A stretch of DNA of 20,128 bases from Candidatus Aenigmatarchaeota archaeon (GTDB taxonomy: Archaea > Aenigmatarchaeota > Aenigmatarchaeia > GW2011-AR5): NCBI GenBank assembly GCA_043799385.1, contig JAZDNV010000014.1, forward strand, positions 1 through 20,128, read 5' to 3'. The notes beneath the pieces are model-generated. The model had not been told where the DNA came from and ran no database searches. It was given only the letters and a program-made list of their open reading frames with translations. The position numbers and the translations under genes were made by a program. Position 1 is the stretch's first letter; each line of letters opens with the position of its first letter. Below are positions 2,069 to 12,050 of this stretch, in pieces.

Positions 2069-2566
2069 ATGAAAGGAATGAAGGGCGCTGATCCGCTGCT
2101 ATCCGCTGTGATGATGATACTGCTCACTGTAACGATAGCTACCATTGTTTCCGGCTGGCTGACCGCAACGTCAGAGCAGACAGGCAAGACGATAAGGAAC
2201 CAGACAAAAGAGCGCCTGAGCTGCAACTACGCCCACTTGTATATAAGGAACGTGACCTACAATTGCAGCGACAACTGCAGCGCTGATAACAACCACAACC
2301 TTACAATAGAGCTGGTCAACTCTGGCGAGGTCGCATTCGAGATAAACAACCTTTACATCAGGAACACGACTGGCACAGTCTTTCAGCTGAGCATAAGTCG
2401 GACAAAATTCAGCGCATCAGACGTGAAATACCTGACAAACATAAGCCGCGAAGCTTGTGACGGGATAAACAACACGATTGAATACGTTACAATATCCAGC
2501 ATGAACTGCCCGAGCAACGCCTACGACAACTATCCCGGCAATCTGGTCAATTTCGTGAATTGCTAA
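2069..2566 (+). CDS. Archaeal type IV pilin-like protein 1 (class III signal peptide)
   Basis: MKGMKG|ADPLLSAVMMILLTVTIATIVSGW followed by a Cys-rich, sequon-rich beta domain. SD-like AGGTG at 2056-2060. Confidence 0.85.
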   Translation: MKGMKGADPLLSAVMMILLTVTIATIVSGWLTATSEQTGKTIRNQTKERLSCNYAHLYIRNVTYNCSDNCSADNNHNLTIELVNSGEVAFEINNLYIRNTTGTVFQLSISRTKFSASDVKYLTNISREACDGINNTIEYVTISSMNCPSNAYDNYPGNLVNFVNC

Positions 2567-2598
2567 TACTTAAATACGGGAGCGACGAATTATTGATT

Positions 2599-3045
2599 AT
2601 GAACGCAAAAGGAGTAAGCCCGCTCATCGCTTCTGTCTTATTGATAGCAATATCTGTTATGATTGCGTATGTGATTATGAGCTGGTCGACGACGCTGACA
2701 AAGGAGCAGACAAAGAGCATATCGAACAAGACTACCGAGCAGGTCGAATGCGGATTAATTCAGATAAAGGACGTCTACATGGACTTAACCAACAACAATA
2801 ACATAAGCCGCGTTTACATCTGGAGCACTAATGCGATTGATTATATAGTTTCGGCGTCAATGATGAACAAGAACGGAGAGCTGGCGAATAACCTAACCGT
2901 TCTGCCGATGAACATAACAAAGGGCGAGCTTAAAGTATTTTTATTCAATCTCAGCGGCAAGATAAACTCATGCGCGAACTTCAGTCAGGTAGTGATAACA
3001 ACGAAATGCACGACTGAAACGTTTACAGGAACTCCGAAGTGTTGA
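2599..3045 (+). CDS. Archaeal type IV pilin-like protein 2
   Basis: MNAKG|VSPLIASVLLIAISVMIAYVIMSW is a canonical archaeal pilin/archaellin N-terminus. Start moved from 2560 to ATG 2599 because TATA-like CTTAAATA (2569-2576) sits ~25 nt upstream. Confidence 0.9.
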   Translation: MNAKGVSPLIASVLLIAISVMIAYVIMSWSTTLTKEQTKSISNKTTEQVECGLIQIKDVYMDLTNNNNISRVYIWSTNAIDYIVSASMMNKNGELANNLTVLPMNITKGELKVFLFNLSGKINSCANFSQVVITTKCTTETFTGTPKC

Positions 3046-3047
3046 AT

Positions 3048-3485
3048 ATGAAAGGAATAAACCCCCTGATTGCATCCGTCATGCTGATAGCAATAACAGT
3101 GCTGCTAAGTGCAGTAATACTCAACTGGATAACCACGCTCACGAAGCAGCAGGGAGCAACAATATCAAACAAGACCACAGACTGCTCAATGGCCGACATC
3201 ACTGTTGCAGAGGTCTACATAGACATTGCGTCAAACAGAAGTAGAGTCGCGGTCAGAAACTCCGGATTCACTGACGATTCGATAGCGTCCGCCATTCTGA
3301 TGAACGCTCAGGGAGAGCCATGCCCGAATCTCACCGTATTTCCGATAAGCTTTCCAGTCGGAAGCCTGCAGACACTAGTGTTTAACATAACAGGAAAGAT
3401 GACAGCCTGCGCGAACTTCAGTCAGGCAATGGTATCCACGAGATGCACCAACGACAAGTTCTACGGAAACCCGAAGTGCGTTTAG
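3048..3485 (+). CDS. Archaeal type IV pilin-like protein 3 (paralogue of pilin 2)
   Basis: MKG|INPLIASVMLIAITVLLSAVILNW. Shares ISNKTT, C-x4-I-x2-VY-x-D, NLTV.P, FN..GK...CANFSQ and G.PKC with pilin 2. ATG 3048 lies 2 nt after the pilin 2 stop. Confidence 0.9.
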   Translation: MKGINPLIASVMLIAITVLLSAVILNWITTLTKQQGATISNKTTDCSMADITVAEVYIDIASNRSRVAVRNSGFTDDSIASAILMNAQGEPCPNLTVFPISFPVGSLQTLVFNITGKMTACANFSQAMVSTRCTNDKFYGNPKCV

Positions 3486-3512
3486 TTCTTAAACGTTTCC
3501 CTATTAATTATT

Positions 3513-3782
3513 GTGGAGGCTAGGTCGGGTAGCTAGGCGATACCTGTTACCGTGAACCGTCTACAGCGGGACCGAAGCCTGAGGGCGATAATTCAGATGA
3601 ATGAGGCCCATTATCAAAGCTGAGAAGCCCAGCCCTTTGGGATTTCAGCATGGCGAACCTGGTGAGAGCCGGAAGGCAGCAGCCATAAACTATTCCTGAA
3701 ATGCTCAGAGGTAAACTGAGTGGAGCGATGGTATTGGACAAACCTTTTTCACCTGTATTAGCCACCAAGGGTGTGCCTCCAC
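3513..3782 (+). ncRNA. ffs: Signal recognition particle RNA (archaeal 7S RNA)
   Basis: Helix 1: GTGGAGGC (3513-3520) / GCCTCCAC (3775-3782). Alu domain: GGTC/GACC, GGGTA/TACCT, UGU motif and loop-loop complementarity TAGGCG (3534-3539) / CGTCTA (3558-3563). SRP54-binding helix 8: GGTGAGAGCC-GGAA-GGCAGCAGCC (3661-3684), resembling the E. coli GGUCAGGUCC-GGAA-GGAAGCAGCC motif. TATA-like CTTAAA at 3488-3493. Confidence 0.95.
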
Positions 3783-3827
3783 TAATAATTATCAATAAAT
3801 ATAAGCTTTTGCTGCGACTAATTCTTC

Positions 3828-11705: not shown

Positions 11706-12050
11706 ATGTACAAACAAGTTATAGTGGTCCGTTCTGATCTGAAGATGTCTGAGGGAAAATTAGCCGTGCAAGTCGCTCATGCGTCATTATCGTCAGCGGA
11801 AAAGGTTACCAAGAAGATTCTTGGCGCATGGTCGGAAGACGGCCAGAAAAAAATCGTCCTGAAGGTAAAAAGTCTTGATGAATTGCTCGATCTGAAGGAT
11901 AAATGCAGAAAATTGTCATTGCCGCACTCGCTTATAACAGACGCAGGTCTTACGGAATTTGATAAGCCCACGGTGACTGCGCTGGGCATAGGACCGGACG
12001 ACGAGAAGAAGATAGACAAAGTTACTGGTTCTTTACCGCTTCTCAAATGA
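11706..12050 (+). CDS. pth2: Peptidyl-tRNA hydrolase, archaeal/eukaryal type
   Basis: KQVIVVRSDLKMSEGKLAVQVAHA, W...GQKKIVLK, DAGLTE, T.LGIGP, IDKVTG.L.LL. Confidence 0.97.
   Translation: MYKQVIVVRSDLKMSEGKLAVQVAHASLSSAEKVTKKILGAWSEDGQKKIVLKVKSLDELLDLKDKCRKLSLPHSLITDAGLTEFDKPTVTALGIGPDDEKKIDKVTGSLPLLK

Follow-up and report, generated by a model that had tools for sequence, protein, structure and literature searches.

What becomes of the archaeal SRP when its RNA appears to be missing an entire arm? The particle is described as a 7S RNA of ~300 nt together with SRP19 and SRP54 (passage on archaea in PMC4731332). The SRP19 passages of a 2010 review place this protein in all archaeal subgroups, where it coexists with helix 6 of the RNA, and leave Nanoarchaeota unmentioned (PMC2905702). 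The locus considered here belongs to a Candidatus Aenigmatarchaeota archaeon and lies in the window that we analyzed, i.e., a stretch of 20,128 nt (contig JAZDNV010000014.1, positions 1 to 20,128 of the forward strand). An earlier note, made from the letters of this stretch, took positions 3513-3782 for an archaeal SRP RNA of ~270 nt with an intact Alu domain but no helix 6, and proposed that the lineage had independently evolved an SRP that does without SRP19. We ask whether helix 6 is indeed absent from a genuine SRP RNA, whether SRP19 is absent as well, and whether this form is private to the lineage.

RESULTS

A single full-length archaeal SRP RNA gene of 270 nt

Positions 3513-3782 (+) match the Rfam model of archaeal SRP RNA (RF01857, Archaea_SRP) from end to end (model positions 1-317 of 317), with a score of 125.5 bits (E = 1.2e-28) against a gathering threshold of 96.5. 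RF01857 is the sole Rfam family above threshold in the 20-kb window, and this match is the single one in the 786-kb genome. Both the identity and the length given in the earlier note are thereby borne out, the match being exactly 270 nt long. The comparison with archaeal and large bacterial models that the note had suggested comes out in favor of the archaeal one, with helix 6 deleted in the alignment: the model of large bacterial SRP RNA (RF01854) aligns over its whole length (3515-3780, model positions 1-256 of 256) and reaches 64.4 bits with a cut-off of 60, so that RF01857, rather than RF01854, is the top-scoring model and wins the SRP clan competition for this RNA. RF01854 also exceeds its cut-off in 29 of 41 relatives and in none of four archaeal control genomes.

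In addition, the model of the bacterial 4.5S RNA (RF00169) gives a full-model match at 3626-3725 (47.5 bits, cut-off 40). The RNA exceeds this hairpin by a further 170 nt, Alu domain included, and is therefore not a helix 5/helix 8 hairpin alone. Annotators should be warned that helix-6-less archaeal SRP RNAs also pass bacterial SRP models. They may also find that gene callers annotate an 82-amino-acid open reading frame (ORF) on the opposite strand over the gene (3547-3795, -); hmmscan assigns it to no Pfam family (E ≤ 0.01), and it is almost certainly spurious.

Upstream of the gene, just past the stop codon of the preceding ORF, a comparison of 47 upstream regions (the window and 46 relatives) points to a TATA-like, A/T-rich promoter box at 3488-3494 (+). 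In these 47 loci, A/T content is 89-95% at positions about -27 to -22 from the predicted 5' end, where a TTTAAA-like word occurs; in the window this word sits 3 nt nearer the predicted 5' end than in the relatives. Downstream, a run of four T at 3807-3810 (+) is a possible terminator, a weak signal given that a run of at least four T within 30 nt downstream occurs in 23 of the 47 loci. Contigs from three public RNA-library runs fall inside the SRP RNA gene and read through from helix 5 into helix 8 with no added nucleotides (X3 record 10, 3603-3733, with 1 difference; X4 record 14, 3558-3751; X10 record 6, 3568-3768); as contigs, they prove neither transcription nor ends nor level, and we treat them as a weak hint.

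Among the neighboring genes, three tandem genes directly upstream of the SRP RNA (2069-3485, +; 165, 161, and 148 aa) have weak matches to pilin/flagellin N-terminal families (Pilin_N, Arch_flagellin; E = 0.0005-0.006), and an ordinary peptidyl-tRNA hydrolase, PTH2, is encoded at 11706-12047 (+; Pfam E = 2e-39).

Helix 5 closes directly onto helix 8

The large domain of the RNA has no place for a branch. In the Rfam alignment, the 40 positions of RF01857 that make up helix 6 are represented by 3 nt in the window RNA, and by 0 nt in both relatives whose Rfam alignments were inspected (n = 2); the window RNA thus has no GNAR-capped helix 6 of the kind found in archaeal SRP RNA. The two pairings with which helix 5 had been said to end, 3634-3641/3704-3711 and 3642-3648/3696-3702, are present in the sequence and are both recovered in the single-sequence minimum-energy fold. 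This fold has an energy of -95.4 kcal/mol (z = -2.25; shuffles -83.3 ± 5.4 kcal/mol) and is unbranched.

The 47 nt enclosed by helix 5 (3649-3695) fold into a single hairpin capped by a GGAA loop (3671-3674), leaving 1 nt on the 5' side (3649) and 2 nt on the 3' side (3694-3695) between helix 5 and the hairpin. With just these 3 nt in total to separate the two elements, there is no space for a helix 6 branch, and the expected branch point is reduced to the single unpaired nucleotide 3649 (+) between helix 5 and helix 8. As such, the three structural statements of the earlier note, namely the helix 5 pairs, the restriction of the enclosed 47 nt to helix 8, and the absence of helix 6, all hold; the last of these is further supported by the consensus fold of 59 RNAs, which is equally unbranched.

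The helix-6-less architecture is under purifying selection

Besides the window RNA, the 59 RNAs comprise 46 of the same phylum and 12 of a second DPANN phylum, with genes longer than 290 nt excluded. RNAalifold folds their alignment into an unbranched rod of helices 1, 2, 3, 4, 5, and 8. Standard pairs occupy 90.6% of the cells of this structure, compared with 63.9% in column shuffles, none of which (0/500) reaches the observed value. Sliding the partners by 1-3 columns lowers pairing to 38-47%, a margin that is large even though the consensus structure was derived from the same 59 sequences and is somewhat favored over the slid controls for that reason. Compensatory (two-sided) change is seen in 84 of 88 pairs. 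The covariation survey of related SRP RNAs that had been suggested therefore supports the fold, and it does so at the decisive place as well: where helix 5 meets helix 8 (columns 130-152/187-212), 20 of 21 pairs show compensatory change.

The covariation extends to both ends of the RNA. Helix 1 pairs its 5' strand at 3514-3520 (+) with its 3' strand at 3775-3781 (+), with compensatory change in 7/7 pairs and 91.9% of cells paired. The core of the Alu domain (3523-3573, +) consists of helix 2 (3523-3526/3570-3573), helix 3 (3527-3532/3540-3545), and helix 4 (3550-3553/3566-3569), which are 93-98% paired, and of the UGUNR word at 3545-3549. The loops of helices 3 and 4 are joined by five tertiary pairs (3535-3539/3558-3562); across the 59 RNAs these are 98.3% paired, with compensatory change in 5/5, compared with 27-53% when slid. 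All parts of an intact Alu domain, as the earlier note had described it, are therefore found. The long rod of helix 5 is formed by a 5' strand at 3577-3654 (+) and a 3' strand at 3689-3772 (+), both supported by covariation.

At its tip, helix 8 (3650-3693, +) is the SRP54-binding hairpin, also matched by RF00169. It has a 5' loop at 3655-3659, a stem (3660-3662/3683-3685), an internal loop (3663-3667/3678-3682), an apical stem (3668-3670/3675-3677), and the GNRA-like GGAA tetraloop (3671-3674). Its two short stems are 98.8-100% paired in the 59 RNAs and show compensatory change, and the invariant columns of the alignment (RNA positions 144, 145, 153, 154, 159, 160, 162, and 167-169) are the helix 8 loops, i.e., the SRP54 site. 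Altogether, the architecture of the helix-6-less RNA is maintained by purifying selection.

The form is common to two DPANN phyla

To see how far this RNA extends beyond the window, consider first the 41 relatives from its own family and order: RF01857 matches 34 of them, over 268-273 nt in 26 cases. In the same class, 112 of 121 genomes have a match; 97 of these RNAs are 266-289 nt long and 15 are 306-399 nt. The second DPANN phylum, entered via a Woesearchaeota record (L144, genome G317), gives matches in 95 of 101 genomes, with 91 at 263-278 nt, 3 at 309-320 nt, and 1 in pieces. The helix-6-less form is vertical across 30 of the 31 genera searched. Breadth was assessed in these two phyla.

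The ~270-nt form without detectable SRP19 is thus a broad trait common to at least the two DPANN phyla sampled. Since it is shared by the class, by the phylum sampled, and by a second DPANN phylum, it is not private to the lineage of the window, and the proposal that this lineage evolved it independently is not supported.

The longer genes do not change this picture, with one possible exception. Inserts were surveyed in 25 of them (L019, L026, L030, L031, L037, and L259-L278): all 15 long genes found in the class and another 3 from the order, 3 belonging to the second phylum, and 4 genes of intermediate length. The inserts measure 10-126 nt and occur at various sites, namely in the Alu domain between helices 3 and 4, within or beside the tetraloop of helix 8, on either strand near helix 8, and once in helix 5. 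An insert in the helix 6 slot occurs in 1 of the 25 (L037:1501-1847, genome G120), where a hairpin of 43 nt with a loop of ~16 nt, GNAR absent, is aligned to helix 6 by Rfam at low posterior probability. A second insert of this gene, 31-32 nt long, lies in the tetraloop of helix 8. An insert at the helix 8 tip is common to all four placed long genes of its family (f20), G120 included, and the three others (G054, G072, and G105) are without the 43-nt hairpin. We read the G120 hairpin as a secondary insert rather than a retained helix 6; it is nevertheless the single observation that counts against a clean "no helix 6 anywhere."

Several of the Alu-domain inserts and the insert of genome G012 share a similar hairpin with a pyrimidine run. 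Those inserts that would break the GGAA loop or the UGUNR turn look intron-like, and introns of the tRNA type or a hairpin element that spreads may account for them. An observation that bears on the intron idea comes from contig 23 (L234:10642-11172, -), where a 177-aa ORF matches just the C-terminal part of the tRNA-splicing ligase RtcB (positions 252-426 of 426); this gene may be split, frameshifted, or mis-started.

SRP19 is undetected and SRP54 is of archaeal type

The genome that contains the window (786 kb in 31 contigs, 91% complete) was searched for SRP19 in six frames with the PF01922 profile, and no match was found even at E ≤ 10. The same profile gave 0/41 among the relatives, 0/301 above cut-off among the genomes of the phylum (a lone 16-bit match has 6 stops), and 0/201 in the second DPANN phylum. 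As controls we used four archaea, none of them a DPANN archaeon with helix 6. Three were matched, and Sulfolobus acidocaldarius, which we take to carry SRP19, was missed even at E ≤ 10. The six-frame search is therefore not fully sensitive, and for this reason a direct ORF scan was also done. Translation in six frames gives 3,658 ORFs with a minimum length of 50 aa. Of these, 995 have no more than half of their length overlapped by a longer one, and all 407 of the 995 with a length of 60-180 aa (ORFs below 60 or above 180 aa being excluded) were compared with Pfam by hmmscan. SRP19 is not among these 407 (E ≤ 0.05 for 136 of them and E ≤ 0.01 for 271). The same scan recovered other small archaeal proteins, namely L37ae, S28e, S27a, S24e, L21e, Rpr2, Pop5, Spt4, Alba, NAC, and eIF1A.

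SRP54, in contrast to the undetected SRP19, is present. Its M domain scores 97 bits in the window's own genome (ORF of 433 aa, contig 14) and is found in all of the genomes sampled from the class (41/41). Among solved structures, the best matches to this SRP54 are archaeal, with 388 bits for 2v3c_C compared with ~257-271 bits for bacterial Ffh. The genome has two SRP GTPase loci, the second of which, on contig 21, is presumably FtsY. Judged by sequence, an archaeal-type SRP54 and a receptor GTPase are therefore both encoded. The search for srp19 and srp54 that the earlier note had called for thus returns SRP54 without PF01922, and its suggestion of an SRP19-independent SRP gains support, given that SRP19 is undetected in all searches, helix 6 is absent, and SRP54 is present.

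DISCUSSION

Proposed particle

With an archaeal SRP RNA whose helix-6-less fold is under selection, no detectable SRP19, and an archaeal-type SRP54 beside a second GTPase, we hold with high confidence that positions 3513-3782 are the single SRP RNA of a small-genome archaeon, with an unbranched large domain lacking helix 6, and that it most likely works as a two-component particle with SRP54. In this RNA, helix 5 continues straight into helix 8, making the large domain one unbranched hairpin as in bacterial SRP RNAs. The particle that we propose would most likely consist of the RNA and SRP54 alone, with the M domain of SRP54 binding the conserved helix 8 loops unaided by SRP19. In bacteria, the GGAA tetraloop helps receptor docking. 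With neither helix 6 nor SRP19 to engage it as usual, the tetraloop of the window RNA would be kept for the corresponding step with the receptor, FtsY. Similarly, the Alu domain of the Bacillus SRP RNA mediates elongation arrest, and by analogy the Alu domain retained here may serve the same use.

Comparison with known systems

The canonical RNAs of RF01857 (Methanocaldococcus jannaschii and Archaeoglobus fulgidus) resemble the window RNA in helix 1, in an Alu domain with UGUNR and loop-loop pairs, in the long helix 5, in a helix 8 with a GGAA loop, and in the archaeal SRP54 partner. The window RNA differs from them in that helix 6 is absent, SRP19 is undetected, the length is ~270 rather than ~300 nt, and the large domain forms an unbranched hairpin where theirs has a three-way junction. 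The Bacillus-type RNAs of RF01854 (Bacillus subtilis scRNA) have the same helices 2, 3, 4, 5, and 8, also without helix 6, and place the Alu motif at an equal distance from helix 8. They are not known to have a helix 1, whereas the window RNA has one, is archaeal by sequence (125.5 versus 64.4 bits), and is paired with an archaeal SRP54 rather than Ffh. A search for the Alu CCUGU-to-helix 8 pattern at helix-6-less spacing found at least 119 loci, nearly all bacterial by title, with 2 archaeal among the matches listed, which suggests that large Alu-bearing SRP RNAs with this spacing may be widespread outside Bacillota. The titles of the bacterial matches listed name Bacillota, Actinomycetota, Planctomycetota, Chloroflexota, Paenibacillus, Bacillus, Cohnella, and Solirubrobacterales.

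Two archaeal systems offer further comparison. Archaeal SRP54 binds SRP RNA without SRP19, and in Haloferax volcanii deletion of SRP19 leaves translocation unaffected, according to passages in PMC2905702 and PMC6098224 that cite these SRP19-free results to Yurist et al. 2007, Diener and Wilson 2000, and Tozik et al. 2002. The window case resembles the Haloferax deletion as an archaeal SRP without SRP19; the latter is a laboratory deletion in which helix 6 is kept, whereas here the protein and the RNA arm are missing across whole lineages. Since an archaeal SRP can work without SRP19 in the laboratory, a natural SRP19-less form is plausible. The SRP RNA gene of Thermoproteus tenax is likewise non-canonical, with a permuted and circularised RNA, but it has retained the GNAR loop that caps helix 6, and SRP19 binds to it (passage on Thermoproteus in PMC4731332), so it is no precedent for loss. 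The earlier statement that helix-6 loss is reported in Thermoproteales thus does not fit this passage, nor does it fit the placement of SRP19 and helix 6 in all archaeal subgroups in the SRP19 passages of PMC2905702.

The absence of the protein has been foreshadowed in marker lists. PF01922 is one of the completeness markers given as absent, in PMC8421398 for 152 Woesearchaeota genomes and in PMC10134863 for Parvarchaeales and Jingweiarchaeales. The lists in both papers give it by accession alone, and neither SRP19 nor the RNA is named there. The relevant passage of a nanohaloarchaeal paper lists FtsY, Ffh, and SRP RNA, and no SRP19, without comment (PMC10266531). In the full-text passages of the literature searched, supplements aside, there is no description of a helix-6-less archaeal SRP RNA, and SRP19 is nowhere named as lost in DPANN, its accession appearing in marker lists only. 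The absence of PF01922 is nowhere linked there to that of helix 6; the marker lists foreshadow the finding in part.

Alternative explanations

The first alternative concerns the protein: SRP19 might exist and have been missed, being too divergent, very short, fused, or encoded in the unassembled 9% of the genome, and might bind the RNA independently of helix 6. We consider this improbable. It draws on the failure of the PF01922 search with the Sulfolobus acidocaldarius control, on a genome that is 91% complete, and on a direct scan limited to ORFs of 60-180 aa. Incompleteness is ruled out as the cause, however, because SRP19 is detected in 0/301 and 0/201 genomes of two phyla, and hmmscan gave 0/407 while recovering other small, fast-evolving proteins. 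Furthermore, helix 6, the chief SRP19-binding element of the RNA, is itself gone, and the PF01922 marker is missing in the lists of two independent papers (PMC10134863, PMC8421398). That the helix would be supplied after transcription or in trans, by a permuted or split gene as in Thermoproteus, to give a canonical mature RNA, is scarcely credible to us. A permuted SRP RNA is known in Thermoproteus (passage in PMC4731332) and the SRP RNA genes of relatives do contain inserts, but the gene in the window is contiguous, with helix 1 closing its ends, helix 5 closing onto helix 8, and covariation throughout; there is a single match in the genome, and RNA-library contigs of close relatives cross the junction without extra letters. 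We therefore reject it. Acquisition of the gene from bacteria with a large, Bacillus-type SRP RNA is very improbable and is likewise rejected: the RNA does pass the cut-offs of RF01854 (64.4 bits) and RF00169 (47.5 bits), yet the archaeal model scores about twice as high at 125.5 bits, helix 1 is present and covarying, SRP54 is of archaeal type, and the form is distributed vertically in 30 of the 31 genera searched.

There remains the direction of change between the two archaeal forms. Instead of having been lost, the helix-6-less, SRP19-less form might be the original archaeal state, a Bacillus-type large RNA plus helix 1 that the small-genome DPANN phyla kept; on this view, helix 6 and SRP19 would be later additions, made toward other archaea and the eukaryote stem. 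This reading is rather unlikely in our judgment, though several observations speak for it: the form is common to two large phyla, the RNA fits the bacterial large-SRP model RF01854 from end to end, and the bacterial loci matched, presumed to be large SRP RNAs, have the Alu motif just as far from helix 8. Its weight is reduced by the position of these DPANN phyla in the archaeal tree, which is disputed, and by a sample that consists of two DPANN phyla and is unrooted. Moreover, the marker lists in PMC10134863 describe reduced genomes without many otherwise universal markers, which makes loss the simpler reading. We thus favor secondary loss over an ancestral state as the likelier direction of change, though as no more than a preference. 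Should the ancestral reading prove true, SRP architecture would be a rare discrete character for placing the DPANN phyla in the archaeal tree.

Significance

Two large phyla of small-genome archaea lack both helix 6 and SRP19, yet what remains of the RNA is clearly under selection. This amounts to a correction of the textbook picture for a large share of archaeal diversity and provides a natural counterpart to the dispensability of SRP19 seen in the laboratory with Haloferax. It also explains one of the archaeal completeness markers, SRP19, that published lists give as "missing" (PMC8421398, PMC10134863). Finally, the form provides a simple character with which to distinguish loss of helix 6 and SRP19 in these lineages from a state that precedes their origin.
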